A stretch of DNA of 49,311 bases from Patescibacteria group bacterium (GCA_038064775.1 JBBTSG010000006.1:32168-81478); one strand, 5' to 3'; shown: positions 1,006 through 22,000, numbered from the stretch's first letter. The notes: generated from the letters alone by a model not told the origin. Numbers and translations are program-made.

Positions 1006-1515
1006 CTATTTATATGAAACGTGATTAGACATTGATTTACCAAGGAGTAATGGTTTAATAATTTGCCACAGTTTTCTATGTTCCGGAATAATATCTTGAG
1101 GCATCTTCGCAAACCACACCCCGTGCTTTGCGGTTTTTAAAGTGGCGCATGAAAAAAATATTGAAACGCATTTAAAACGTCGACTATCGTATACGATTAC
1201 TCTACGAGCCGAGAGTGATTTGCTATTTTTAATTTTCAATCCCGCCTCCACTCGCGCAGTTCTTTGGCAAGTCGTTAAAAAAGTTTCTCTGGGACTCATA
1301 TAACTTCCGGGAAAGTGCCAGCCCTTAAAATATTTGTCATTCCGATATATTAAAAGCACTTTTCTATTTTGAATTAAAGCAAGCTCCGTTGCCACTGGGA
1401 CATTTTTTCTCATAAGCGATACAAAAACATTTTCTGGAATATTAGGAATTGACGGAAGTCTTTTCAATAATTGTGCCAATGTTTTAATTTCCGCTTTGGT
1501 TAAATGTTTTTGCAT
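1006..1515 (-). CDS. Nudix-fold hydrolase with degenerate Nudix box (GDP-mannose mannosyl hydrolase-like)
   Basis: VLLIYRNDKYFKGWHFPGSYMSPRETFLTTCQRTARVEAGL resembles the Gmm/WcaH region; paralog of 9145-9642. Confidence 0.7.
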   Translation of the reverse strand: MQKHLTKAEIKTLAQLLKRLPSIPNIPENVFVSLMRKNVPVATELALIQNRKVLLIYRNDKYFKGWHFPGSYMSPRETFLTTCQRTARVEAGLKIKNSKSLSARRVIVYDSRRFKCVSIFFSCATLKTAKHGVWFAKMPQDIIPEHRKLWQIIKPLLLGKSMSNHVSYK

Positions 1516-1532: not shown

Positions 1533-2483
1533 CTATATTTTTTCTCCTGTGCGTGTTTTTTTGAGATAAATCGCCCCCCTTTTTAGGAGCTTTATATTAA
1601 GCGATTTGTAATTAGCTTCATACCACCGATATAATTTCTCTATAGCTGTATCAAGTATTGTAAATTTAAAATTAGGCATTGATTTTAACAACTTGCTTAT
1701 GTCGGCGCTGTATTCTCTATCAAGGCCTTTGTTTTGAACCACAATAGGAACCTTATTTTTGCCAAATTTGTTTATTTTATTAGCAATACTTAAAAGATCC
1801 CTAGATTTACCGGTAGCCACATTAAAGACATCTCCCTTAATCTTGGAATTTATAAAAAAATCTATGGTGGCAACCAAATCATCAATATACATATAATCAA
1901 ACTGGACGTTTCGGGCAATTAAGATTGGCAAACCAAAAATGTTCCGCAAAATTGCGTTAGAAATAAACCTGAGATGATATTTTTCATATTTGCCAAAAAC
2001 ACCAAATAGGCGCAAACCAACAATATTTTTCGACGTCGCCAATATATACTTTGAACAAATATATTTTGAAAACCCGTACTCGTCTGACGGAATATGAGCG
2101 CCAAAATATTCTTCACGCATTCTCGGATGATAGTTGTGCACATCATATTCCGCTCCGCTTCCTAAAAATATCATCCGCTCAGCAATATCCAAGCATCGCT
2201 CCAAATTGAAAAACATGCGAATATTCCCTTCTGCCGCTCCTTTCAAATTAACCGTATCTCGCCTACCACCGACGTTTGCGCAGTGTATAATTACTTGTAT
2301 TTTATTTTTTTTAACGTACCGCCGCACCATATCTGCGTCCAATAAATCCAACTCGGTATGAGATGGGGCACTAACTAAATATTTTGCGGAAATAAATTCC
2401 GCAAGATTCCTACCTATGAACCCACGTCCACCAGTAATAAGAATGCGTTTTTTTCTTTTTACTACATTAGTATGACTGCTCAT
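1533..2483 (-). CDS. NAD-dependent epimerase/reductase (extended SDR, GDP-fucose synthase-like)
   Basis: ITGGRGFIG, ELDLLD, IIHCA, GSGAEY, YGFSK (YxxxK), FNVATG. Confidence 0.88.
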   Translation of the reverse strand: MSSHTNVVKRKKRILITGGRGFIGRNLAEFISAKYLVSAPSHTELDLLDADMVRRYVKKNKIQVIIHCANVGGRRDTVNLKGAAEGNIRMFFNLERCLDIAERMIFLGSGAEYDVHNYHPRMREEYFGAHIPSDEYGFSKYICSKYILATSKNIVGLRLFGVFGKYEKYHLRFISNAILRNIFGLPILIARNVQFDYMYIDDLVATIDFFINSKIKGDVFNVATGKSRDLLSIANKINKFGKNKVPIVVQNKGLDREYSADISKLLKSMPNFKFTILDTAIEKLYRWYEANYKSLNIKLLKRGAIYLKKTRTGEKI

Positions 2484-2486
2484 TAT

Positions 2487-3218
2487 CTATATAGCTGTTG
2501 GACCGACGTACTCTACATCTTCAGAATCAAGACGACGATAAGACTTCTCGTTTTTACACTCCTCCTCAACGTGAGCTATTATACCCGGTAATCGGCCCAA
2601 AATAAAAAATGCTTTGCCAAGTCGCCAATTAAATCCAAGCTCGGAAATGATTGCAGCCACTGCCCCATCAACGTTCAATGGTAGCACCTTACCTGTCTGG
2701 CGAAACAGTTCCGACTCAATTTCCCGCGCTCGATTTAAATACTTCATGGAAAGCTTCAATTCTTGCGATTTTTTAAAAAGCGCCGTGGTTCTATGATCCT
2801 CTGTTTTATAAACCTTATGGCCATATCCGGGTAACCGTTCTTTTCTCTGAATTGAGCGCTCTACTATTACCTGTGGCGAATCAGCCGACTGGAAATAAAA
2901 AGCAGCTTTTTCAATCGCGCCACCATGCATGTCTCCTATGGCGAGAATGCCCGCGGCGATGGCCGCATTCTGAGAATTGCCGGTAGAAACTACACTTCTC
3001 GCAACAAATGCTGACGGCACCTCTATTCCATGCTCTACCATGGAAATTAAAATCGCCTCCAGCATCTTAGCCTGGTTTTTAGAGGCCTGTTTTCCCTGTA
3101 AAATAAAGAATATGGTCTCCGCCAAATTTGCATCGTCCACCAATTTAGCCAAACGAACACCTCTTATATAAAACTCCCCGTCTTTATATGAGCTGATTGC
3201 AGTTTTCCATTTCATCAC
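2487..3218 (-). CDS. Citryl-CoA lyase (citrate synthase-like domain of ATP-citrate lyase)
   Basis: EHG..PSAFVAR, GDMHGGA, LPGYGHKVYK.ED.R, PLNVDGAVAA, GRLPGIIAH; about 240 aa stand-alone citrate-synthase fold. Confidence 0.88.
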   Translation of the reverse strand: MMKWKTAISSYKDGEFYIRGVRLAKLVDDANLAETIFFILQGKQASKNQAKMLEAILISMVEHGIEVPSAFVARSVVSTGNSQNAAIAAGILAIGDMHGGAIEKAAFYFQSADSPQVIVERSIQRKERLPGYGHKVYKTEDHRTTALFKKSQELKLSMKYLNRAREIESELFRQTGKVLPLNVDGAVAAIISELGFNWRLGKAFFILGRLPGIIAHVEEECKNEKSYRRLDSEDVEYVGPTAI

Positions 3219-4123
3219 CTTATTTTCCCACGAAGTTTTTCTTTAATCAACGGTGGCACGTCTTCTAAGGTGTTTACCACATAAACTCCGGCGCGTTTTA
3301 AAGAACTTACCTTTGAGGTGTAACTACCCCTTCCTTTCATGACTATCGCGCCAGCATGCCCTAAAACCGTGCCACTCGGAAGCTTTTCTGTGAATTTCCC
3401 GGCAATCAAAGCTATTATTGGTTTTTTGAATTTTGACTTTTTTATAAATCCGGCCAGTTCTTCCTCATAAATTCCGCCCACTTCGCCGAAAATTACTATG
3501 GCGCGCGTATCGTTATCCGTACCAAAGAGTTTAACTATGTCTATAAAATCAGAACCAGAAATTTGATCACCGCCAATACCAATAACAGTGCTTTGACCCA
3601 AACCTGCGTGATTTAATGTAACTGCGATTTCTGCAACCATACCACCACTTTTAGAAATAACTCCAATTCTGCCTGGTTGAAAAATATTTTTTGGATTACT
3701 ACCGCCGATACTCCCTACTTTCCCATAACCCGGAGAAATAATACCGACAGATGATGGACCGATAATAGTTGCTTTGTTTTTTCTAGCCCAAGCAAGAATT
3801 ATCGCGGTATCCATAACCGGCACATGTTCGGTTAAAATATTTATTAGCGGGATTTTATGATTAATAGCTTCAAGCGTGGCATCTTTTACCGCAAGCGCTG
3901 GCACAACAATAAGAGACGTGTTTATGGTTGGATGTAGACGTAAGACATCTTCTACCGTGTCATAAATAGGCACTCCATAAATTATTTGACCACCCTTACC
4001 GGGCGTAACGCCAGCTAGAACCTTAGTACCATAATTCCGCATCCCCTCCATGGCACGCAACCCCTCCTTGCCAGTAATTCCCTGAATAACTACTCTTGTT
4101 TTTTTATTAACGAGAATGCTCAT
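3215..4123 (-). CDS. ATP-citrate lyase/citryl-CoA synthetase CoA-binding subunit (SucD-like); start reassigned to MSILVNKK
   Basis: VIQGITGKEG, GVTPGKGG, IIGPSSVG, SKSGGM, IGIGGD, GEVGG, phospho-His motif LGHAGA. Confidence 0.88.
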   Translation of the reverse strand: MSILVNKKTRVVIQGITGKEGLRAMEGMRNYGTKVLAGVTPGKGGQIIYGVPIYDTVEDVLRLHPTINTSLIVVPALAVKDATLEAINHKIPLINILTEHVPVMDTAIILAWARKNKATIIGPSSVGIISPGYGKVGSIGGSNPKNIFQPGRIGVISKSGGMVAEIAVTLNHAGLGQSTVIGIGGDQISGSDFIDIVKLFGTDNDTRAIVIFGEVGGIYEEELAGFIKKSKFKKPIIALIAGKFTEKLPSGTVLGHAGAIVMKGRGSYTSKVSSLKRAGVYVVNTLEDVPPLIKEKLRGKIR

Positions 4124-5198
4124 AGTTTTTCTTTTTTTTTGACAAATCAACAACTAATTTAGCGGTTTCGGACATTGGCGTCCTTGAATCAAAGATATGA
4201 AAATCATAACCCTCTTTTTCTGCCACGGCCCTTAGCATCTCCTCGGCCTCCTTTTGCCGTGGTCCATCACGCCTTATAACAAAGGGATAGTTCGGCTTTG
4301 GTTTAACGCTTCTTAAGCCATCTAAAAACCCGCGCATTGTTTCATATATATCCGTAAAGTTTGCCGTACCACCTATAACCCAACAGCCCTTGAGTCCTTT
4401 TTGCGCAAGAACACGCTTCGTTAACTCCTCAACTATTTTAGCCGGTGGATTACCGGAATATTCCACATAGTTTGCTGGACGACCGCCATAAAAAAATAAA
4501 GCGTCAATATTTAAAAGAGAGGCACCCCCACCTGATGCAAGAATTGCGATATCTCCATTTAGATTTAGAAAGCTTCGTTCGTTCGGATTTATTTTCTCAT
4601 TATCCAAAATTACTTTTGCGTCACCCGCGATGAATTGACCATTTGAAGTTTTGAGTATCGGGTTAATTTCGGCAAGTAATGCATCCTCATCTAAAAATAA
4701 TTGCCATAAATTCTTAAGTAATAGGGAAAGTGGCGGGATATCCGACGAAACAAAACCGCTTTTCTGTAACGCCTCGCGAAAAAAAAATGGTTGGACGCCA
4801 GAAACCAGATCGATGGGAAATGTTTTTGCTTTTGAAATGCCAGATCCGCCTTTTGTGGAAAGCATTAGAATTGGACTTCGCAACATTAAATCATAACTGA
4901 ACGACGCATAATATTCATTACTTGCCGTGATTTTTTCTTCGACTAGAACGCTGATAATTTTTTTACCGGAAAGACCTCTTCTTAAAAGAACTTTTAATTG
5001 TTTTTTTACTTCCGATTTGGTTTTAGCGAATAATATTCCTCCGGCCTTCTTCCTCTCTCCAAAAAGAACTTGCGCTTTTACAGCATAAGGACCAGCGAAC
5101 CGAATTTTGGTCGCCGGACTACTCGCTATAACTCGACGAGGCGTAGGAATGCTGTATTTTTCAAACAATTCCTTCCCTTGAAACTCATATAATTTCAT
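4107..5198 (-). CDS. ATP-citrate lyase ATP-grasp/citrate-binding subunit (AclB/SucC-like)
   Basis: MKLYEFQGKELF, KAQV, EINP, DAK, SGGGAS, PANYVEYSGNP; GGTANFT and IRRDGP match the ACL citrate-binding motifs (GGIANFT/RRGGP) rather than SucC (GGIVRCD). Confidence 0.85.
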   Translation of the reverse strand: MKLYEFQGKELFEKYSIPTPRRVIASSPATKIRFAGPYAVKAQVLFGERKKAGGILFAKTKSEVKKQLKVLLRRGLSGKKIISVLVEEKITASNEYYASFSYDLMLRSPILMLSTKGGSGISKAKTFPIDLVSGVQPFFFREALQKSGFVSSDIPPLSLLLKNLWQLFLDEDALLAEINPILKTSNGQFIAGDAKVILDNEKINPNERSFLNLNGDIAILASGGGASLLNIDALFFYGGRPANYVEYSGNPPAKIVEELTKRVLAQKGLKGCWVIGGTANFTDIYETMRGFLDGLRSVKPKPNYPFVIRRDGPRQKEAEEMLRAVAEKEGYDFHIFDSRTPMSETAKLVVDLSKKKKNYEHSR

Positions 5199-7003
5199 GG
5201 ATTTGTCTTAGCTTCTTTCTCCAAGTCGGTCACCATTTGTTGTTTTAGTTCCGCGGGATCCAAAAACGGATACATGTCTTCGTATGGTTTGGGCACAAAT
5301 CTGCCATCGGGTAATTTATCCGACATAGTTCTTGGCGCCAATATTTGCCACTCTGGCGTCATTACGTCACAAATTACTGGCCCATCATAACTTAAAACTT
5401 CAGCTATTTTTTCATCAATCCCGTCCACTGAATCGATTCTAACGCCTTTAATTCCGTAAGCCTCCGCTATCTTAAGAGAATCCGGACACCAAAGACCAGT
5501 AGCCGGACTCTCGCCTATTAAATGTTTGTTCATAAAATTAGCTTGACTTAGTCGCATCAATAAATATCCATTGTTATTAAAAATAAAAATCTTAAGTGGT
5601 AAATTATTGTGTTTAACGGTGGCGAGCTCCTGCAAATTCATTTGCAAACTACCATCTCCAGTGATAACAATAGTATTTTTCCTATCATTAGCCACACAAG
5701 CCCCAATTCCGGCTGCCCAGTAACCCATAGTGGAAAATCCACCAGTCGTTAAAAATTTTTGACCTTTCTTTATTTTCCATGTTTGACACGCGACATGAAA
5801 ACAGGAACCGGTATCAACTAAAATCCAATCGTCTTTTGTCGCGGCCGCGGAAAGTTTGTCAGTAAAATAATATGAGTTTACCGGTTTTTCATTCTTGTAA
5901 GAAGGTTGAACAACTGGATACTTAATTCTCCATGCCTTACATACTCTTACCCACCCTCCCCAATCCGGCAATTTTTTATCGGTAATTTCTTCAAGTAACG
6001 TTTGAAGGAATTTTTTTGCCGTGCTCTTTATTTTAAGATCAATTTCAACCCCTGGCTTGTCCAGTTCTTTTTGGTCAACGTCCACAACAATTTTTTTTGC
6101 GTTTCTTCCGAAATCTTTGGGGTTATGTCCAACTAATGACGTGGCTAATCTGCAACCAACAACTACTATTAAATCTGAATTTTGAATCGCAAAATTTGCA
6201 GCTCTTTCCCCATACGTACCCGGCCTACCAACATACAATTTATGCTCGCTATCAATTAAATCTATTGCTAAACGCGCGGTTAAAATTGGAATTTTTAGCA
6301 AATTAATAAGATTCTCGAATTCTCCCTCCGCGCTACCCAATTTTATCCCTTGCCCAACCAAGAGTATTGGTCTTTTTGCACTTAGTAACATTTGGACTAG
6401 TTCTGCGATTTGACCTTTGTCAGACGCGAACTCTTCTTCCGTTTCTTGTTCATTAAAAATCTTTGCCGGTTTTTCCGGAACTTCAGCTCTTTGTATATCC
6501 AACGGCACATCAAGCCAAACCGGACCAGGCCTGCCGTTCATGGCAAGATAATAAGCCTTCTCCAAATAATATAATAAGTTAGCGGGGTTATCGACGGTAA
6601 CAAAAAATTTAACTACGTCTTTTACTAACGGTTTTATGTTTATACCCTGGACTCCAACTTGCCGAATTTTATTTTTTTCCTGATAATCGACAAACGCTAA
6701 ATTCGTCTGTCCAGAAATAATAATCATTGGCGAAGAATCTACCCAGCCGCCAACCACGCCGTTAATAACGTTCACCGCGCCGGGCCCCGCGGTTACCATA
6801 GCAATCGCTGGCTTTTTTTTTAGCCGTCCGTAGGCTTCAGCTGCCATTCCGGCTGCCTGTTCGTGATGAGAACAAATAACCTTAATTTTCTTACTCCTAT
6901 AAATCGCGTCATTTAGAAACATGGATTGCCCACCAGCAACCATAAACACCGCCTCAACTTCTTTTTCTTCAAAAAATTTTAAAATATAATCAGCAACAAT
7001 CAT
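5195..7003 (-). CDS. ThDP-dependent acetolactate-synthase-like enzyme, YerE/ErwE type (branched-sugar acyl transferase)
   Basis: HHEQAAGMAAE, VTAGPG, RPGPVWLDVPLDIQ, TGDGSLQMNLQEL..NNNGY; glycan-locus context. Confidence 0.85.
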   Translation of the reverse strand: MIVADYILKFFEEKEVEAVFMVAGGQSMFLNDAIYRSKKIKVICSHHEQAAGMAAEAYGRLKKKPAIAMVTAGPGAVNVINGVVGGWVDSSPMIIISGQTNLAFVDYQEKNKIRQVGVQGINIKPLVKDVVKFFVTVDNPANLLYYLEKAYYLAMNGRPGPVWLDVPLDIQRAEVPEKPAKIFNEQETEEEFASDKGQIAELVQMLLSAKRPILLVGQGIKLGSAEGEFENLINLLKIPILTARLAIDLIDSEHKLYVGRPGTYGERAANFAIQNSDLIVVVGCRLATSLVGHNPKDFGRNAKKIVVDVDQKELDKPGVEIDLKIKSTAKKFLQTLLEEITDKKLPDWGGWVRVCKAWRIKYPVVQPSYKNEKPVNSYYFTDKLSAAATKDDWILVDTGSCFHVACQTWKIKKGQKFLTTGGFSTMGYWAAGIGACVANDRKNTIVITGDGSLQMNLQELATVKHNNLPLKIFIFNNNGYLLMRLSQANFMNKHLIGESPATGLWCPDSLKIAEAYGIKGVRIDSVDGIDEKIAEVLSYDGPVICDVMTPEWQILAPRTMSDKLPDGRFVPKPYEDMYPFLDPAELKQQMVTDLEKEAKTNP

Positions 7004-7008
7004 CGTTT

Positions 7009-8013
7009 TTATTGGTGTTTTTTTGACAAATTCACGGCTACATCTACAATAACATCTTCTTGACCAGCAACAACTTTTCGTTTTCCTAACTCCATAAAAA
7101 TATCTCTAGCATCAACTCCAAACTCTTCGGCCGCTTTCTTTACATGCGGAGTAAAACCAGAAAACACCCCCGCTAAACCGCTTACAATACTGATCGGGTC
7201 AATCCCTTGGAGGGTTTTCATTATCGGCTTTATTATCTCCTCGCCAGCATCCAAAAGCTTATATAGCTCTACGCCCGTATCTATCCCAGCTTTCTGCATC
7301 AAAGCCATCAAAGCTTCGAGTTGGCAATTACCCGCACCCGCCCCAAATCCCCTCACCGTGCCATCAATAATACTTGCCCCGGACTCTAAAGCGATAAAAG
7401 AATTGGCCACGGCCATACTTAAATTATTATGGGCGTGAAAGCCAACTAGAATTTTTAAATTATCCGCCAAGTGTTTAACCGTTTCCCTAACCATAAGAGT
7501 GGTGGATGAACCAGCCGAATCCATAAGCAACACGCCCTTTACGCCATAGCTTTGCATTTTTTTTGCCTCTTCTAATAATCTTTCTTTCGAAGCCATATGA
7601 TACATCATTAGAACGCCAAAAGCCTCTTTTCTTTTACTAACCACATACTCAATATGCTGCTGGGTAATATCAGCTTCCGTACAATGCGTTCCTACACAAA
7701 CCAAATCTACTCCAGCATCAAGCGCTGGAGCCAAATCATCTTTAATAGTGCCAAATCCAGGAATCAAAAAGGTTCCTAGTTTGGTTTTTTTTAACGCTTC
7801 GCGCGCCGTAGAAATTATTTCCAAATCAGAATAAGCCGAAAGTCCAACCTGAAGAGTTGAAGCACCCAAGCCATTACCGTGTCCAACAATAACAGCGTAG
7901 AGACCAGACCCGTCAACTTTTTCACAATAGCTTTTGATTGTGAGGGGGTTAATTTGGTGCCTTACTGCGTGCGACCCATCCCTTAAAGTGGAATCAAAAA
8001 AAATAGGTTTCAT
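7009..8013 (-). CDS. dmpG: 4-hydroxy-2-oxovalerate aldolase
   Basis: DSTLRDGSHAVRHQ, VGHGNGLGAS, THCTEAD, GFHAHNNL, LGKRKVVAGQED. Confidence 0.93.
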   Translation of the reverse strand: MKPIFFDSTLRDGSHAVRHQINPLTIKSYCEKVDGSGLYAVIVGHGNGLGASTLQVGLSAYSDLEIISTAREALKKTKLGTFLIPGFGTIKDDLAPALDAGVDLVCVGTHCTEADITQQHIEYVVSKRKEAFGVLMMYHMASKERLLEEAKKMQSYGVKGVLLMDSAGSSTTLMVRETVKHLADNLKILVGFHAHNNLSMAVANSFIALESGASIIDGTVRGFGAGAGNCQLEALMALMQKAGIDTGVELYKLLDAGEEIIKPIMKTLQGIDPISIVSGLAGVFSGFTPHVKKAAEEFGVDARDIFMELGKRKVVAGQEDVIVDVAVNLSKKHQ

Positions 8014-8891
8014 TTGTTTTTATATTTTTTTCTGGCGTATTCTTCTGCAACTTGTACGGCTGCGGAGGTTATTATGTCTAAGTTTCCGGAATACTCTGGT
8101 AAAAAATCGCCTAGGCCGGTCACTTCGGTGGTAATGGTAAGACGACCATTTTCGTAAGTCGGCCCCAAAATAAGCTTGTATCCAGACGCATATTTTTTGA
8201 TTTGCGCAATAATTTCTTTTATTTTTTCCTCTATTTCCTTCAATTTTGGCTTTTCAATTTCAGCGTAAATCGTATTGCGCATCCGAACCGGCGGTTCTGC
8301 CGGATTCAAAATAATAACGGCTTTTGCTTTAGGCACCCCGGAGTAATGCTCAATCGCGTCTTTGGTTGTCTGAGTATATTCATCAATGTTTGCTCGCGTA
8401 CCAGGACCAGCTGATTTAGAAGAAATTGTCGCAACGATTTCAATATATTTTATCTCCGGGTGTATTTCCATTAGAACCTTAGCTATTGGCGCCGTGGCTT
8501 GACCGCCACAAGTCACCATATTAATGTTTTCCGCGCCGATACTTTCTTCCAAGTCAATAACCGGAACGCACATTCTGCCAAACCTTGATGGAGTTAAGTC
8601 AATTACAAATTTGCCAAGTTTTTTTAAAATTGGGGCGTTAACCATATGCGCTTTCGCAGAAGTCGTGTCAAAAACAACTTCACAAATATCTGGCTCGTCT
8701 AAAATTACCTGAATTGAATCCGCAGAAGTCCTGATGCCCATCTCTTTTGCTTTTTGAATTCCTTTGGACTTAGCGTCGCGCCCGGCAAAAATACTACATT
8801 CCAAAAGATCAGACCGTCGTATCTTAAATAGCAAGTCCATCCCAATATTGCCAGTACCGATAATGCCTATTTTAACTTTTTTATTTTCCAT
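8010..8891 (-). CDS. dmpF: Acetaldehyde dehydrogenase (acylating)
   Basis: IIGTGNIG, DLTP, NMVTCGGQAT (catalytic Cys), SKSAGPGTRANIDEY, GNLDIITSAA. Confidence 0.93.
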   Translation of the reverse strand: MENKKVKIGIIGTGNIGMDLLFKIRRSDLLECSIFAGRDAKSKGIQKAKEMGIRTSADSIQVILDEPDICEVVFDTTSAKAHMVNAPILKKLGKFVIDLTPSRFGRMCVPVIDLEESIGAENINMVTCGGQATAPIAKVLMEIHPEIKYIEIVATISSKSAGPGTRANIDEYTQTTKDAIEHYSGVPKAKAVIILNPAEPPVRMRNTIYAEIEKPKLKEIEEKIKEIIAQIKKYASGYKLILGPTYENGRLTITTEVTGLGDFLPEYSGNLDIITSAAVQVAEEYARKKYKNK

Positions 8892-9144: not shown

Positions 9145-9642
9145 ATGCTCGTAGCGCACGAAATAGAACTACTCGTTGCACTTCTTCAAAGGGTCGAATG
9201 GCCGCTGAATCCGAAAATTTTTCGCGCGTTCGTTAATATCGTAGTATCCGTTCCTATTGAACTAGCGGTACTTAATGAACGGGACGAAATCCTTATGTTC
9301 TATCGCAAGGACGAAGAGTACGATGGGAATCATATTCCCGGTACGGTGCTCCGCGATAATGAGACTGTTTCCGATGCAATTGCTCGTTTGCGCAAGAGCG
9401 AAGTAGTCGGCGGCAACATATCGGATCCTATCGACATAGGACACATAGAGATCGTGAAAGGAAATGGTTTTGGCGAGAACCCGACGCGCCATGAAATTTC
9501 TCTCGTTCATGTATCGCGACTCATGGGTCCTTATACAGGGAGTGGAAAATTTTATCTCCTAGACAGATTACCAGAAGATACACTGCCTCATCACCAAAAG
9601 CTAGTCAGTAAAGTTATCGAATATCTGCAAACGCTGAACTGA
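9145..9642 (+). CDS. Nudix-fold hydrolase with degenerate box; paralog of 1006-1515
   Basis: VPIELAV..ILMFYRKDEEYDGNHIPGTVLRDNET; SD AGAAAGGTGG upstream. Confidence 0.7.
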   Translation: MLVAHEIELLVALLQRVEWPLNPKIFRAFVNIVVSVPIELAVLNERDEILMFYRKDEEYDGNHIPGTVLRDNETVSDAIARLRKSEVVGGNISDPIDIGHIEIVKGNGFGENPTRHEISLVHVSRLMGPYTGSGKFYLLDRLPEDTLPHHQKLVSKVIEYLQTLN

Positions 9643-9728: not shown

Positions 9729-10973
9729 TTATTTAATTCCGCGCTTTTTTAAAAAAAATCCTGTTATTTCACAAACATAATCAATCATTTTATCTGTCAA
9801 GCCGTGATGTAAGCCAATAAGAAAGGAATTCCCCGTTATAAATTGCGAATTGGCTAGATTGCCAATCTTTCTGTATTTCACATTCGCATAAGCCGGTTGC
9901 TTTATTATATTCCCCGAGAAAAGTGGTCTTGTCTGAATCTTATGGCGCTCCAAATATCTAACCAGCTCATTTCTCGTAAATGGAGCGTCTTTTTTTATCG
10001 TTAGTGGAAAGGCTAACCAATTAACGTTCGTTCGGGGAAATTCTTTCGGTAAAATGAAGTATTCCTCAAATTGTCCAAAAAATTCGTAGAGCCGCTTAAA
10101 ATTATTCCTGCGCAAACTTGTAAAACCTTTCAATCTATTTAACTGCTCTAACCCAAATGCGGCCTGAATCTCGGTAGGCTTGAAATTATATCCTAGTTCC
10201 ACGAAAACGAAGGCGCTATCATACGGTTTACCATCAATCTTAAAAGTGGCTAACCGGGAACGAATGTCTTGATCGTGGCGCGAGATTCCCCTCCCCCAGT
10301 CACGAAACAACCTGGCTCTTTCCCTCAATTTTTTATCGTTGGTCATGAGCATACCGCCCGCCCCGCCAGTTGTTATTAGATGAGAGGCATAAAAACTCGT
10401 AGTCGTAACATCGCTCCATTTCCCCGATGGCTGACCGTTAAATTTCCCGCCAATAGTGTCACAGCTATCTTCAATGAAAACTAATCCATGTTTTTTGCAA
10501 AAACTCCTAATAGTTGGCAAATCCACAAAATTGCCGATCAGATGCGGCGCCATAACCGCCACGGTTTTATTGGAAATAGTTTTCTCTAATTCTTTTGGAT
10601 TTATTTGATAAGTTCCCGGCTCCACATCCACAAACACCGGAACCAAACCAGTTTGGATTATCGGAGCCACGGTCGTATTAAATGTGCACGCCGGGGTAAT
10701 TATCTCAGAACCCTTAGGGAATTTTAAGGCGCAAAGCGCTAAAAGGTTTGCGGAAGAACCAGAATTTACGAAAAGTCCGTACCTTTTTCCATATAATCCC
10801 GCTACCTTATTTTCAAATTCTGCAGTAATTTTTCCGGTTGTTAACCAACCACTTTTTAGTGCTTTATTAACAGCTACTATTTCTTTTTTACTGTATGCGT
10901 CAGTAGTATTCGGCGCATACCAAACCCAATCTTTTCCGGGAATAAATTTTTTACCGCTTATAAGAGAATTCAT
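9729..10973 (-). CDS. E1/RfbH(DdhC)-like PMP-dependent NDP-4-keto-6-deoxyhexose 3-dehydratase, lacking the Fe-S cysteine loop
   Basis: VNSGSSANLLA, SFYASHLIT (His at the Schiff-base Lys site), FRDWGR, GYNFKPTEIQAAFG, TRPLFSGNI.KQP. Confidence 0.85.
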   Translation of the reverse strand: MNSLISGKKFIPGKDWVWYAPNTTDAYSKKEIVAVNKALKSGWLTTGKITAEFENKVAGLYGKRYGLFVNSGSSANLLALCALKFPKGSEIITPACTFNTTVAPIIQTGLVPVFVDVEPGTYQINPKELEKTISNKTVAVMAPHLIGNFVDLPTIRSFCKKHGLVFIEDSCDTIGGKFNGQPSGKWSDVTTTSFYASHLITTGGAGGMLMTNDKKLRERARLFRDWGRGISRHDQDIRSRLATFKIDGKPYDSAFVFVELGYNFKPTEIQAAFGLEQLNRLKGFTSLRRNNFKRLYEFFGQFEEYFILPKEFPRTNVNWLAFPLTIKKDAPFTRNELVRYLERHKIQTRPLFSGNIIKQPAYANVKYRKIGNLANSQFITGNSFLIGLHHGLTDKMIDYVCEITGFFLKKRGIK

Positions 10974-10986
10974 TATTCAATAATGA

Positions 10987-12045
10987 TTAATGCATTTCCG
11001 TTCTGCCTTTTTCGGTCTCTATCGGAACGTGACGCATCCACAGTTTTTCTTTCCACCAATTTTCATTATTGATATACCAATCGATAACTGACCGGAGACC
11101 GCTTTCAAATGAGATTTTTGGCTCCCAACCAAGAACTTTTTTAATTTTATCTACTCCTGCAGTATGCCGAAAAACTTGACCTGGGCGATCCCCAATATTC
11201 ATAGATGAAAAACTGTATTGGACCTTACTGCTTTTATTCTTCATATATTCCATGATAAGATCAGCTATTTTTGAAACAGAGTAATCTTCCCCAGTACCAA
11301 CATTAAAAACCTCACCTTCAACTTTTTCCGCGGGAGCGTGCAAAATTAAATCTATAGCATTAGATAAGTCGTCTACGTAAGTAAAATCCCTTTTGCTATT
11401 ACCTGTGCCGTGTATAGTAAGCGGCTCTCTCAAAATACAGCTGGTGATAAAGCGGGGAATTAACTTCTCAAGATGTTGGTTCGGACCAAACATGTTAAAA
11501 GGGCGGACAATCACTGCCGGAATTTTATAAGTTGATACATAAGAATAAACTAGTCGATCAGCTCCAGCCTTGGCGGCGGCATAAGGACTTGCGGGATTAA
11601 GAGGGTGATCTTCATGCATTTTATCAGTAACCGCCGTACCATAAACTTCACTGGTCGAGATGTGAATAAATCTCTTGATTCTGTCTCTGTGTCGCAAAAC
11701 CGCGTTTGCCACCCGTTGAGTACCAATAACATCCGTCTCAAAAAATCTTTCGTCATCATAAATCGAACGAGCCACATGAGTTTCGGCGGCAAAATGAATA
11801 ACGACATTCGCTCGCGAGACAAGCTCTTCAACGAGTTTGGCATTTTTTACATCTCCATAGACGAAACGAAAATTTGAGGATTCGTGAATCCTTTTTGAAA
11901 TATTATGAATATCTCCCGCATACGTGAGCGCATCGAGAACAATGAAATTATATTTAGGGTATTTATCGAACAGATAAGCGAGTACATTGCTACCAATAAA
12001 TCCGGCAGCCCCAGTTATTAAAATTGTATTTCTGTCAGATATCAT
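10987..12045 (-). CDS. RmlB-like NDP-sugar 4,6-dehydratase (or decarboxylase) with a TSE active-site variant
   Basis: ITGAAGFIGS, DALTYAG, HFAAETHV, HISTSEVYG, PYAAAK, RDFTYVDD, DRPG. Confidence 0.85.
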   Translation of the reverse strand: MISDRNTILITGAAGFIGSNVLAYLFDKYPKYNFIVLDALTYAGDIHNISKRIHESSNFRFVYGDVKNAKLVEELVSRANVVIHFAAETHVARSIYDDERFFETDVIGTQRVANAVLRHRDRIKRFIHISTSEVYGTAVTDKMHEDHPLNPASPYAAAKAGADRLVYSYVSTYKIPAVIVRPFNMFGPNQHLEKLIPRFITSCILREPLTIHGTGNSKRDFTYVDDLSNAIDLILHAPAEKVEGEVFNVGTGEDYSVSKIADLIMEYMKNKSSKVQYSFSSMNIGDRPGQVFRHTAGVDKIKKVLGWEPKISFESGLRSVIDWYINNENWWKEKLWMRHVPIETEKGRTEMH

Positions 12046-17810: not shown

Positions 17811-18932
17811 TTAAAATGACCGGCAAATTTCTATAAGCGACCGAGCAACATATTTTTTTTCCTCTTCGCTTAAAATCGGCCCGCTCGGAATATAAAAACC
17901 ATTTAAACCGATTTTATTGGCGACAAGACAATCATCGTGATTAGTAAAACCTCCTTTAATAAAAATTTCTTGCGTGTTATAAGGAATAAATCCTTCTCTG
18001 GTTTCTATACCCAATTTTGAAAGCTCTTCAAGAACTGTTTTTCTTTTGCCTTCCGCTTTACCCCGAAGCACCACGTAATACATCCAGTAAACATTTTTAG
18101 CGTAGGGTTTTTCAACGGGTAATTGGATTTCAGGAATGTTCTTGAAAGCGTCATTGTAAAAAGCTGCGATTTCTCTTTTTTTACCGATGATAAAATCTAT
18201 TTTCCCGATTTGAGCTAAACCTAAGGCTGCTTGAAGATTCGTCATCCGGTAGTTGTAGCCAATATCCTGATGCATAAATTTATTTGTCGCGCCAAAAGCT
18301 AATGATTTTAGCATTCTCGCCCGATCAGCTAATTCTTTATTATTCGTGGTAATCATCCCGCCTTCACCGGTTGTAATAATTTTATTGGCATAAAAACTGA
18401 AACAACCAATGTCTCCGAGCGATCCAACTTTCTTACCTTTATATTCCGCGCCATGGGCTTCCGCGCAATCTTCCACAACAAAAAGATTGTGTTTCTTGGC
18501 GATTGCCAAAATTGGATCCATATCCACCGGATGGCCATAAATATGAACCACCATAATAGCTTTTGTCCGCGGTGTAATTTTTTGCTCAATTAGACTAGGA
18601 TCAATATTCCAAGTATCTTTCTCAATGTCAATCGGAATCGGTTTTGCGCCGCAATAATGAACGGCAAAAAAAGTAGCCATGTTTGTAAATGTTTGAACGA
18701 GTACTTCATCGCCCGGCCCGATTTTCAGCGTTGCGAGAGCCAAATGGAGCGCGGTTGTTCCGCTTGTAGTTGTAATCGCATATTCGGTGCTACAATATTT
18801 TGCAAAACTTTTTTCGAAATCGTTAATATAGCTCCCGGAAAAACCGGAAATTTGACCCTTATCCAAAGCATCCATTACAATTTTTTTTTCTTCCTCTCCT
18901 AAAAATGGTTGGGAAACGGGAATTTTCCTCAT
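17811..18932 (-). CDS. DegT/DnrJ PLP aminotransferase (perosamine synthase-like); start reassigned to MRKIPVSQP
   Basis: TSGTTALHLAL, VHIYGHP, EDCAEAHG, SFYANKIITTGEGG (catalytic Lys), YNYRMTNLQAALG; the longer ORF start would run through the upstream terminator. Confidence 0.9.
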   Translation of the reverse strand: MRKIPVSQPFLGEEEKKIVMDALDKGQISGFSGSYINDFEKSFAKYCSTEYAITTTSGTTALHLALATLKIGPGDEVLVQTFTNMATFFAVHYCGAKPIPIDIEKDTWNIDPSLIEQKITPRTKAIMVVHIYGHPVDMDPILAIAKKHNLFVVEDCAEAHGAEYKGKKVGSLGDIGCFSFYANKIITTGEGGMITTNNKELADRARMLKSLAFGATNKFMHQDIGYNYRMTNLQAALGLAQIGKIDFIIGKKREIAAFYNDAFKNIPEIQLPVEKPYAKNVYWMYYVVLRGKAEGKRKTVLEELSKLGIETREGFIPYNTQEIFIKGGFTNHDDCLVANKIGLNGFYIPSGPILSEEEKKYVARSLIEICRSF

Positions 18933-18980
18933 AAAACCCATTATGGCAGAAAGGAGCGAAAAATAAAAGATGTTAAAAAA

Positions 18981-19016
18981 ATCCCCCAGTCTTATTTTAA
19001 GAACTGGGGGTATTTT
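18981..19016 (-). terminator. Intrinsic terminator of the 19015-19791 gene
   Basis: CCCCCAG-TTCTTAAAATAAGA-CTGGGGG followed by ATTTTTT on the minus strand. Confidence 0.7.
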
Positions 19017-19791
19017 ATAGTAATTGGCTTTTGATAAAACCAAGTTTTTTTGCGACCGCGAAAAAGGTTCTAATCTGGTCTTCTTGCTGTTGTAATCTTT
19101 TTTCTACCATCTCCAAAAATCGCGGCCCTTCCTCTTCTGTTTTTTGTTCCGGCGGATATTCAAAATCAATATATACTGCCGAAACTCGAAGCCCTCTAGC
19201 GAAAGCTTCAATCGGAGCGATCGCCTGAAGATAAGGACTAGGAAGTTTTTGCCCATAATTCTTTGAAAAACAATCGACAAAAACTTGAGACGCGTCAGGC
19301 GAATAAGCTTCTGGTCCAAAACTTGGATCAGCAAGAATGCCTGTTAGCTCACAGTAAGTAAAGTTTATTAGCTTCTCTGTCTTTTGCTGAAAAGAAGGAT
19401 AACTTCGCCACGCCTTTTCGCTACGGGACGGAATAACAACATCAGCTTGTCCTGTGATAATCGGAGCAATAATTTCCGGAATGTATTTGATGATTTGAAC
19501 CTTTTCTGGCTCACTCCAAATTATTGCTGAAATCAACTGTTTTTTCTTTTCATCAGCTGCTAGCTCAAATGCCAAGCGCCGTTGTTCCTGAAAACTTCTT
19601 CCCTTGCCGTCTACTACGGTAGCACCGATTGCTTGTAAAACATCGGAAATAATGTTTTCTGGGGAATTATCAATAATCAGTACTTGATATCCTTTTTCAA
19701 TCGCTTGCCTTACAAACTCACAGGCAAGTTTAAACCTTACTTCCTCGATATTCTGATACATCGTCGTCGTAACAACCAATACTCGACCCAT
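19015..19791 (-). CDS. Hypothetical protein, possibly GT-A fold glycosyltransferase-like
   Basis: N-terminal VLVVTTT...VLIIDNS, WSEPEK, ADVVIPSR resemble the GT2 layout; SD AAGGAG upstream. Confidence 0.5.
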   Translation of the reverse strand: MGRVLVVTTTMYQNIEEVRFKLACEFVRQAIEKGYQVLIIDNSPENIISDVLQAIGATVVDGKGRSFQEQRRLAFELAADEKKKQLISAIIWSEPEKVQIIKYIPEIIAPIITGQADVVIPSRSEKAWRSYPSFQQKTEKLINFTYCELTGILADPSFGPEAYSPDASQVFVDCFSKNYGQKLPSPYLQAIAPIEAFARGLRVSAVYIDFEYPPEQKTEEEGPRFLEMVEKRLQQQEDQIRTFFAVAKKLGFIKSQLL

Positions 19792-21442: not shown

Positions 21443-22000
21443 TCACTCCTTTCTTTTTTTGGCCCATAGGCCGGTTTTGTATTTTACGTCTCCCACTTTT
21501 TTTAACATCACGAGTTCGATATTACCTTTACCTACAAGCCCGGGAATATTTCCCACATGAATATATCCTGCTTTGAGATAAAGTCGCTGTCCTACAGGAT
21601 TGTCCTTACTTGTGGAAAGATATATTGTCGCAAGGTTCGGAATGCCACAAACTTCTTTTATGTATCGCACCGCAAGTTTATCGCCTTTGATAAGAAGTTT
21701 TATGCCAATGCCTTGCCCCTGCATGTTCTTACTTATGCCAATCATGTTCAAATAAACCGTGCCGTTGGTCGGGGGTTTATTCTCATAGTGAATGAAACCG
21801 ATAATCTTGTCTCCTTGTTTTGCAACAATTACGATTTCATTCTCATCATTAAGAGCTGTTCTAAAAAATCTTCGGCATTTTTCTCTGTCGAAACCCTTCC
21901 CATAATTAAAGTCCTGCGGAAATGTACCTTCGACAACGTCAATAATGCCACGCTCATCTCCCCGGATGGCTAACCGAATTTGAATTCTTCTCTTATTCAC
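21443..22000 (-). CDS. GNAT family N-acetyltransferase
   Basis: IGFIHY, LNMIGISKNMQGQGIGIKLL (motif A), N..GQRLYLKAGY. Confidence 0.85.
   Translation of the reverse strand: MNKRRIQIRLAIRGDERGIIDVVEGTFPQDFNYGKGFDREKCRRFFRTALNDENEIVIVAKQGDKIIGFIHYENKPPTNGTVYLNMIGISKNMQGQGIGIKLLIKGDKLAVRYIKEVCGIPNLATIYLSTSKDNPVGQRLYLKAGYIHVGNIPGLVGKGNIELVMLKKVGDVKYKTGLWAKKRKE

Follow-up and report, generated by a model that had tools for sequence, protein, structure and literature searches.

The stretch of DNA analysed here, hereafter the window, comprises 49,311 nucleotides from a Patescibacteria group bacterium (GCA_038064775.1 JBBTSG010000006.1:32168-81478) whose genome amounts to 605 kb and is 95% complete. 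On the minus strand, from position 8891 down to 1533, seven genes are packed with every overlap or gap at 5 nt or less, in the order DmpF-DmpG-ThDP-beta-alpha-lyase-SDR, where ThDP stands for a thiamine diphosphate enzyme and SDR for a short-chain dehydrogenase/reductase. The subject of this report is the beta-alpha-lyase trio, which from its sequence appears to be an unfused, two-enzyme form of ATP-citrate lyase (ACL), consisting of a citryl-CoA synthetase (CCS) and a citryl-CoA lyase (CCL). Its genes are:

4107..5198, minus strand: beta, 363 aa; ATP-grasp and citrate-binding domain of the ACL/CCS type, compact form
3215..4123, minus strand: alpha, 302 aa from an ATG, or 312 aa from a TTG at 4153; CoA-binding and CoA-ligase domains
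2487..3215, minus strand: free citryl-CoA lyase, 242 aa from an ATG, or 243 aa from a GTG at 3218

Alpha and lyase meet at AGGTGATG, where their frames differ and the genes overlap either by the 4 nt GTGA or, if the lyase starts at its ATG, by the 1 nt shared in TGA/ATG. An earlier reading of this DNA (the original prediction) had described a separate lyase gene of 243 aa joined by a 4-nt GTGA overlap in another frame; the open reading frames (ORFs) and the junction agree with it, the length being that obtained with the GTG at 3218.

The three subunits

The short motifs on which much of the following argument turns are located as follows:

4353..4373, minus strand: GGTANFT, residues 276-282 of beta; N280 and T282 correspond to N346 and T348 of human ACLY
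4260..4274, minus strand: RRDGP, residues 309-313 of beta; R310 corresponds to R379 of human ACLY
3347..3361, minus strand: GHAGA, phosphohistidine loop, alpha residues 255-259
2916..2930, minus strand: MHGGA, lyase His/His/Asp motif
2805..2828, minus strand: GYGHKVYK, lyase His/His/Asp motif
2664..2675, minus strand: NVDG, lyase His/His/Asp motif

The beta subunit matches the Pfam domains ATP-grasp_2 (PF08442, 112.5 bits) and Citrate_bind (PF16114, 78.2 bits), and its score to the SucC model, 169.3 bits, lies below the cut-off of 370. Among PDB sequences it ranks closest to CcsA of Hydrogenobacter thermophilus (6hxq_B, 162.5 bits over both domains), then to the succinyl-CoA synthetase (SCS) beta chain of Thermus (134) and to Chlorobium AclB (104), while the C-terminal domain alone scores 85.7 bits with Chlorobium AclB vs 79.9 with CcsA. 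Four residues of beta, G249, N280, T282 and R310, align with G309, N346, T348 and R379 of human ACLY (alignment numbering), which are reportedly the citrate ligands in the 3MWD structure. Among the sequences from the candidate phyla radiation (CPR), CcsA and AclB, the columns concerned vary little or not at all; T282, like A279, shows no exception, and N280 is retained in at least 90%. R309, R310, G312 and P313 are invariant in alignments A1 and A2. Both motifs thus stand in beta as the original prediction had them, but its use of them as a mark specific to ACL does not hold. Because GGTANNT and VRRNGP occupy the corresponding positions in CcsA of H. thermophilus, the motifs would rather mark a citrate-type C-terminal domain common to CCS and ACL.

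The compactness of beta, also pointed out earlier, proves to be a feature of a clade. Compared with relatives of ~400 aa, ~32-40 linker residues between the ATP-grasp and C-terminal domains have been cleanly deleted (alignment A1), and the compact betas of ~355-365 aa form a derived clade (100/100) among forms of ~380-430 aa. An AlphaFold2 model of beta (pLDDT 89.9) retrieved SCS beta (ranked first), CcsA and ACL beta in a Foldseek search, all at E < 1e-21 and a TM of ~0.6; because the model matches the three alike, the predicted fold would not tell CCS, ACL and SCS betas apart. One of the related betas, in Microgenomates (L100:8001-9257), holds one in-frame stop within its script-derived ORF coordinates, which may be real, a case of recoding, an error of assembly or a fault in how the script extended the ORF.

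Alpha matches CoA_binding (PF02629) and Ligase_CoA (PF00549) and scores under both SucD cut-offs (287.8 vs 336 bits, and 288.6 vs 353.2). Against PDB chains it reaches 236-281 bits with the SCS alphas of archaea and Thermus, 210 with CcsB and 155 with AclA. For comparison, 429 bits are reached against 6hxq_A by a genuine CcsB, twice the score of the window alpha. These comparisons suggest that alpha is SucD-like and not CcsB-like.

The lyase matches Pfam Citrate_synt at profile positions 147-355 of 357, which is the C-terminal catalytic part only, and passes the curated NCBIfam model NF004869 'citryl-CoA lyase' (254.7 bits, cut-off 212). Its PDB scores are 226.9 bits (E 2e-66) for CCL of H. 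thermophilus (6hxp), ~80 for citrate synthases and 63 for the AclA C-terminus, with identities of 49% to the H. thermophilus CCL, 31-33% to citrate synthases and 28% to the C-terminus of Nitrospira AclA. The MHGGA, GYGHKVYK and NVDG motifs align with the corresponding motifs of 6hxp and of citrate synthases, and their His/His/Asp are presumably the catalytic residues. Judged by a length within the ~240-270 aa of CCLs, by curated cut-off, clade and intact His/His/Asp, the gene appears to belong to the CCL family, and citryl-CoA cleavage is its predicted activity. With PF16114 in beta, the sub-cut-off SucC and SucD scores and the NF004869 match, the original prediction of a citrate-type rather than succinate-type synthetase accompanied by a free citryl-CoA lyase is borne out.

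Conservation and descent of the trio

Related loci were collected by scanning a single genome for each prokaryotic species, which gave 382. Counts at the level of loci refer to the best 80 of these 382, 74 of them being complete with beta, alpha and lyase. In all 74 complete loci, which come from other species, the genes run beta-alpha-lyase on one strand, and a fused or nearly fused alpha and lyase was found in none of the 74. Relatives of the trio occur in several groups of Parcubacteria (Ryan-, Colwell-, Nomura-, Wildermuth- and Andersenbacteria, and others), in Microgenomates (Davies- and Woykebacteria) and in Nanoarchaeia; among 401 evenly sampled Patescibacteria species, 13 (~3%) carry it.

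These loci bear directly on the possibility that we are dealing with an ordinary two-subunit ACL in which an error of sequencing or assembly has shifted the frame of aclA at 3215-3218. A single-base indel would indeed leave an alpha stop and a lyase start overlapping in different frames, as seen here. We give this explanation hardly any chance at all, however, as the two ORFs are separate in all 74 complete loci, across various species and assemblers, and the 4-nt overlap recurs in the closest relatives. The same three ORFs lie on the independent contigs L031 and L032 with the 4-nt overlap and on L002 with a 1-nt overlap, and one of these three contigs, from another sample, carries a beta 85% identical to that of the window, the other two being more distant. 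Moreover, the 302-aa alpha is devoid of the ~50-70-aa linker by which both halves of the 608-aa AclA are connected, and the N-terminus of the lyase is a normal one, aligned with residue 5 of the H. thermophilus CCL. Because separate ORFs are kept in 74/74 loci and in independent contigs, the split of alpha and lyase is genuine, as originally proposed, and not an artefact of assembly.

Genes are inserted between the subunits at 14 loci. The inserts are mutually unrelated except for two small ORFs in three Daviesbacteria loci, and the idea of a conserved extra partner within or beside the trio, such as a transporter, was rejected on this ground. A 350-aa ORF inserted in L019 had no Pfam match. 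The two Daviesbacteria ORFs, of ~96 and 103 aa, overlap each other and lie between alpha and lyase (L092:5191-5731, L110:10157-10697 and L112:2300-2831); they are 56-89% identical across these loci and could represent a pair of the toxin-antitoxin kind.

Trees of the single subunits differ in what they tell about the kinship of the trio. For the lyase, the CPR/DPANN proteins form one clade with the characterised CCLs of H. thermophilus and of one Leptospirillum-type member of the Nitrospirae, supported at 100/100 against citrate synthases. For alpha, the CPR proteins, SCS alpha and CcsB form a polytomy, with AclA distant; AclA has very long branches in both the alpha and the lyase tree and its placement is resolved in neither. 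The beta tree, rooted on SCS beta, has CcsA of Aquificae and Nitrospirae as one clade (100/100) and, as its sister clade (99/96), the CPR/DPANN betas together with AclB; within the latter the CPR/DPANN betas are monophyletic at 72/74. The window beta is outside the SCS clade (100/100), and is sister to AclB, not nested in it. Orthology with CcsA and CcsB of Aquificae and Nitrospirae was not found, beta being in the sister clade and alpha outside the CcsB clade. The trio thus has the architecture of CCS/CCL but belongs to a lineage of its own within CPR/DPANN, in which beta is shortened and alpha resembles SucD. The three-gene layout that the original prediction read as an intermediate is the known one of CCS/CCL. 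In all three trees the trio of L089 (Nanoarchaeia) is very close to those of L091 (Woykebacteria) and L094, with branch lengths of 0.1-0.3, which may reflect either a recent transfer between CPR and DPANN or mis-binning.

Two other views of the trio can be weighed on this evidence. Public sources often label such genes as an ordinary SucCD with a truncated or degenerate citrate synthase; several homologues are called 'succinyl-CoA synthetase beta subunit' by the Joint Genome Institute, the top matches of alpha are SCS alpha chains, and Foldseek places SCS beta first. Still, beta has PF16114, with ANFT and RRxGP in place of SCS-type motifs, and lies far below the SucC cut-off and outside the SCS clade; alpha misses the SucD cut-offs; and the lyase represents a family conserved as a separate protein, its catalytic motifs being intact. 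The genome yielded neither aconitase nor malate dehydrogenase, other enzymes of the cycle not having been searched. We rejected SCS plus truncated citrate synthase on domains, curated cut-offs and the beta tree, and consider it very improbable. The second view concerns history and is compatible with any functional explanation: ACL may have arisen from a collinear beta-alpha-lyase operon through loss of the alpha stop codon. The grouping of CPR/DPANN betas with AclB to the exclusion of CcsA argues for it, as do the better AclB score of the C-terminal domain of beta and its exact ANFT motif, the overlap of only 1-4 nt between alpha and lyase, and a gene order collinear with aclB-aclA (L114), whereas ccsA of H. 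thermophilus is not adjacent to ccsB. In approximately unbiased (AU) tests on beta, joining CcsA to the CPR sequences with AclB outside costs 12.1 log-likelihood units (p = 0.029), but the grouping of AclB with CcsA is not rejected (p = 0.061), and the groups were picked after the tree had been seen, so that AU support for the kinship of beta to AclB is borderline. AclB and CcsA are both long-branched, AclA finds no firm place in the other two trees, and fused or near-fused genes are missing from the 74 loci. A sister group, moreover, is not an ancestor, and the change may have been either a fusion or a fission. Descent of ACL from such an operon is therefore possible, though doubtful. The original prediction of an intermediate between CCS/CCL and ACL is partly supported, by the sister position of beta and the collinear order; the argument from the motifs has fallen away, the AU result is borderline, and lyase and alpha do not resolve the relation to ACL.

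That the trio is of the CCS/CCL kind is not in itself new. A 2022 preprint reported that CPR/DPANN sequences annotated as SCS or citrate synthase are monophyletic with CCS or CCL, and another paper listed aclAB among the genes enriched in some CPR metagenome-assembled genomes. The kind of enzyme and its presence in CPR were thus known, and at ~3% of sampled Patescibacteria species the module is not rare. What we add is the rooted beta tree with its AU tests, the deletion in the compact beta, the neighbourhood counts over 74 loci and an inventory of missing acetyl-CoA routes.

Proposed acetyl-CoA supply and the neighbouring sugar genes

A search of the genome, which is 95% complete, found no pyruvate:ferredoxin oxidoreductase (PFOR), acetate kinase, Pta, AMP-binding domain (as in acetyl-CoA synthetase) or pyruvate formate-lyase. 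Aconitase and the Ldh/Mdh C-terminal domain were likewise not found in this 95% complete genome. No pyruvate dehydrogenase was seen in it either, the sole E1_dh match being a split transketolase. As no aconitase, malate dehydrogenase or PFOR was found, the trio is not regarded as an enzyme of the reductive tricarboxylic acid (rTCA) cycle, and a part in the rTCA or TCA cycle was rejected on the same ground. Apart from a reversible DmpF, the trio appears to be the only recognisable route to acetyl-CoA in the genome. The split transketolase, outside the window at G000:C20:34473-36702, consists of ORFs of 286 and 329 aa with a 122-aa ORF bearing a hydrophobic stretch between them; it is the N-terminal half that gives the E1_dh-like match, and the gene lies in a row GAPDH-RpiB-Rpe-Tkt-sugar kinase.

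The genes around the trio offer a use for this acetyl-CoA:

1533..2483, minus strand: SDR, NAD-dependent epimerase/reductase, 316 aa; Pfam Epimerase; 3 nt downstream of the lyase; candidate side-chain reductase of the ErwF/YerF type
5195..7003, minus strand: ThDP carboligase, YerE/ErwE/JanthE-like, 602 aa; Pfam TPP_enzyme_N, _M and _C; its stop overlaps the beta start by 4 nt
7009..8013, minus strand: DmpG-like 4-hydroxy-2-oxovalerate aldolase, ErwI counterpart; TIGR03217, 377.2 bits, above cut-off
8010..8891, minus strand: DmpF-like acetylating acetaldehyde dehydrogenase, ErwJ counterpart; TIGR03215, 385.5 bits, above cut-off
9729..10973, minus strand: RfbH/E1-like 3-dehydratase; NF011936 RfbH, 402.6 bits, just below the cut-off of 423
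10987..12045, minus strand: RmlB-like 4,6-dehydratase, from the ORF list

The best PDB match of the ThDP enzyme is JanthE (8rph, 387 bits), followed by PpYerE (5ahk, 245 bits); JanthE, which is YerE-like, takes 4-hydroxy-2-oxovalerate as donor (PMC12188165). In Pectobacterium atrosepticum, ErwJ makes acetaldehyde from acetyl-CoA, ErwI couples acetaldehyde with pyruvate to give 4-hydroxy-2-oxopentanoate, the ThDP enzyme ErwE joins the latter to CDP-4-keto-3,6-dideoxyglucose, and reduction by ErwF yields erwiniose (Steitz et al. 2022, PMC9306805). The gene set of such a pathway, namely acetaldehyde dehydrogenase, aldolase, YerE-like ThDP enzyme and reductase, is present in the window beside genes for a 3,6-dideoxy-4-keto sugar, and the trio sits between the ErwE-like and the ErwF-like gene. 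By analogy, the RfbH-like and RmlB-like enzymes would supply the deoxy-keto-sugar acceptor. The seven-gene layout was found only in the immediate clade of the window, comprising the window, L002, L031, L032 and L034, and the SDR keeps its position beside the trio in the latter four; the betas of the window, L002, L031 and L032 form a clade with a support of 99, and L034 is the sister of the window in all three trees.

Two further genes of the same glycan locus, ~16 kb from the trio, encode a GNAT acetyltransferase (window 21443-22000, minus strand) and a DegT-type sugar aminotransferase (17811-19043, minus strand); they would be a second consumer of acetyl-CoA, for an N-acetylated amino sugar. 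Small Nudix-like or Nudix-sized genes flank the module at 1006-1515 (minus strand) and 9145-9642 (plus strand), the first alone having a Pfam NUDIX match; a Nudix gene follows the module in L031 as well.

Other lineages show the trio in a different company. The gene immediately upstream of beta is glmS in 15/74 loci, where the GlmS model gives 797 bits; in 13/74 it encodes a GlmU-like nucleotidyltransferase/acetyltransferase of the archaeal type and in 3/74 a stand-alone acetyltransferase domain of the GlmU type, together 31/74. A GlmU-like gene follows the lyase on the same strand in 8/74, and 39/74 loci have a gene of the hexosamine pathway within 8 kb of the trio. By chance, any particular gene would adjoin the trio in ~0.1% of cases if a genome holds ~800 genes. 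The linkage to glmS is found in Parcubacteria and that to GlmU in Microgenomates and Nanoarchaeia; they are separate arrangements pointing to the same acetyl-CoA-consuming pathway. The genome of the window has its own glmS at G000:C4:2831-4663, not beside the trio.

Because neither Krebs-cycle partners nor another recognisable route to acetyl-CoA, bar the reversible acetaldehyde dehydrogenase, is seen in the genome, the trio probably performs an ATP-dependent citrate cleavage of the two-enzyme CCS/CCL type, which makes acetyl-CoA from imported citrate for the branched sugar of the operon. What the sequences show directly are the domains and motifs, the placement in families, the conservation of gene order and neighbourhoods and the lack of pathways; from these we infer the substrate, the direction of the reaction, the import of citrate and the coupling to the sugar pathway. 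According to this model, ATP would phosphorylate the histidine of the GHAGA loop in alpha, and the phosphate would move to citrate held in the C-terminal domain of beta by G249, N280, T282 and R310. CoA would then displace the phosphate to give citryl-CoA on beta/alpha, which the free lyase, by means of its His/His/Asp, would cut into acetyl-CoA and oxaloacetate. The citrate presumably comes from a host or from the environment. The ErwJ-like enzyme would reduce acetyl-CoA to acetaldehyde, from which the ErwI-like aldolase would form 4-hydroxy-2-oxopentanoate with pyruvate, and the ErwE/JanthE-like ThDP enzyme would add this product to a 3,6-dideoxy-4-keto sugar, the predicted outcome being a branched sugar of the erwiniose type. 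Class II pyruvate aldolases of the DmpG-type family decarboxylate oxaloacetate, and one may speculate that the oxaloacetate released by the lyase is decarboxylated to pyruvate for the aldolase.

Several points weigh against this model. Citrate specificity in the CPR/DPANN lineage is predicted by homology, and with beta outside the CcsA clade and alpha outside the CcsB clade the functional assignment has to bridge a wide evolutionary gap. In the genome of the window no citrate transporter was identified, and no route for oxaloacetate was found (there being no malate dehydrogenase), which leaves half of the product unexplained. Evidence from gene neighbourhoods is circumstantial, and a GlmU-like or hexapeptide acetyltransferase gave no match in the genome of the window itself (tblastn, PF00132). 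DmpF and DmpG catalyse reversible reactions, so that the opposite direction is conceivable for them. Finally, PFOR is present in 3/13 genomes with the trio vs 187/388 without it (one-sided p ~0.06, the genomes being related), so that the association of the trio with a lack of PFOR is a trend only and not significant.

The same chemistry might instead act on another hydroxy-acid, such as citramalate, 2-methylcitrate or malate. Cleavage of citramalate would give acetyl-CoA and pyruvate, substrates of ErwJ and ErwI and exactly the two precursors of 4-hydroxy-2-oxopentanoate; the genome revealed neither where citrate would come from nor a sink for oxaloacetate, and the lineage is far from the assayed enzymes. 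Yet all four residues aligned with the citrate site of ACLY are retained, the lyase scores above the threshold of the curated citryl-CoA lyase model and has 49% identity with a CCL of assayed activity, and the known citramalyl-CoA and malyl-CoA lyases have other folds, which makes a substrate other than citrate improbable. The module could also run in reverse, from acetyl-CoA and oxaloacetate through citryl-CoA to citrate and ATP, fed with acetyl-CoA by a cleavage of the DmpF/DmpG type, and would then act as a citrate synthase that conserves ATP. ACL-type reactions are near equilibrium, DmpF and DmpG classically yield acetyl-CoA, and the three trio-bearing genomes with PFOR belong to one family. 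But neither a source of 4-hydroxy-2-oxovalerate, acetyl-CoA or oxaloacetate nor a citrate-using enzyme is visible in the genome of the window, the operon is one of glycan biosynthesis, and the glmS and GlmU neighbourhoods of the relatives indicate that acetyl-CoA is consumed. In the published scheme for erwiniose, ErwJ and ErwI act in the synthetic direction (PMC9306805). Reverse running thus has very little to recommend it, and cleavage of citrate in the direction of acetyl-CoA remains the explanation that we favour.

One may go further and see in the CPR/DPANN operon a third lineage of citrate cleavage, an unfused and collinear sister of ACL with an anabolic role, which would be the main and perhaps the only source of acetyl-CoA in these ultra-small symbionts and would channel citrate from the host or the environment into envelope glycans. 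We hold this broader view to be conceivable, if somewhat short of probable. If true, acetyl-CoA would go to the N-acetylation of glucosamine 1-phosphate in most lineages and to a four-carbon sugar branch in the present one; citrate would be a predicted nutritional dependency, and the acetyl groups of the cell wall would derive from it. CPR bacteria and DPANN archaea are without most of central metabolism. The genes are labelled differently from source to source ('hypothetical protein', 'succinyl-CoA synthetase', 'ATP-grasp domain-containing protein', aclAB), and this widespread mis-annotation can inflate the calling of rTCA carbon fixation in metagenomes. An unfused operon collinear with ACL, with a beta sister to AclB, is also useful for understanding how ACL, and ultimately the eukaryotic ACLY, was assembled.

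Comparison with known systems

The closest known system is CCS/CCL, with which the trio shares the three polypeptides, a beta of ATP-grasp plus PF16114, an alpha with a phosphohistidine loop and a lyase of ~250 aa with the citrate-synthase fold. It differs in clade and in the length of beta, which in CCS is 416-429 aa, as against 363 aa with the linker deletion here; the C-terminal extension of CcsB is absent from the window alpha. The genes of the window form one tight beta-alpha-lyase operon placed among glycan genes in a genome without the rTCA cycle, rather than in a setting of autotrophic carbon fixation, whereas in the CCS/CCL locus L116 an aconitase gene lies between ccsB and ccl.

ACL itself (AclB/AclA; Chlorobium limicola 6HXJ, Nitrospira) resembles the trio in the overall reaction, predicted here, in the order of domains and in the ANFT and RRxGP motifs, but has AclA as a single protein (608 aa in Nitrospira) where the window has a separate alpha and lyase. 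SCS (SucC/SucD) has the fold and subunit plan in common with the synthetase part of the trio, and the window alpha is about as near to the SCS alphas of archaea and Thermus (236-281 bits) as these are to one another. The C-terminal domain of the window beta, in contrast, is of the citrate-binding type, and a lyase gene always follows the alpha of the trio.

As for the erwiniose genes, the same set of functions flanks the trio, as judged by comparison with the description of ErwE, ErwI and ErwJ, and acetyl-CoA is the entry metabolite; the published description of that cluster, however, names no citrate-cleaving genes (PMC9306805). The cytosolic ACLY of eukaryotes is one fused polypeptide of ~1100 aa, with only 20% identity to the model of beta when aligned by Foldseek and 34-48 bits by phmmer. 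It would nevertheless be alike in role, in that citrate carries acetyl-CoA for biosynthesis and acetylation outside the Krebs cycle, and the trio, if the broader view given above is true, would be its prokaryotic counterpart.

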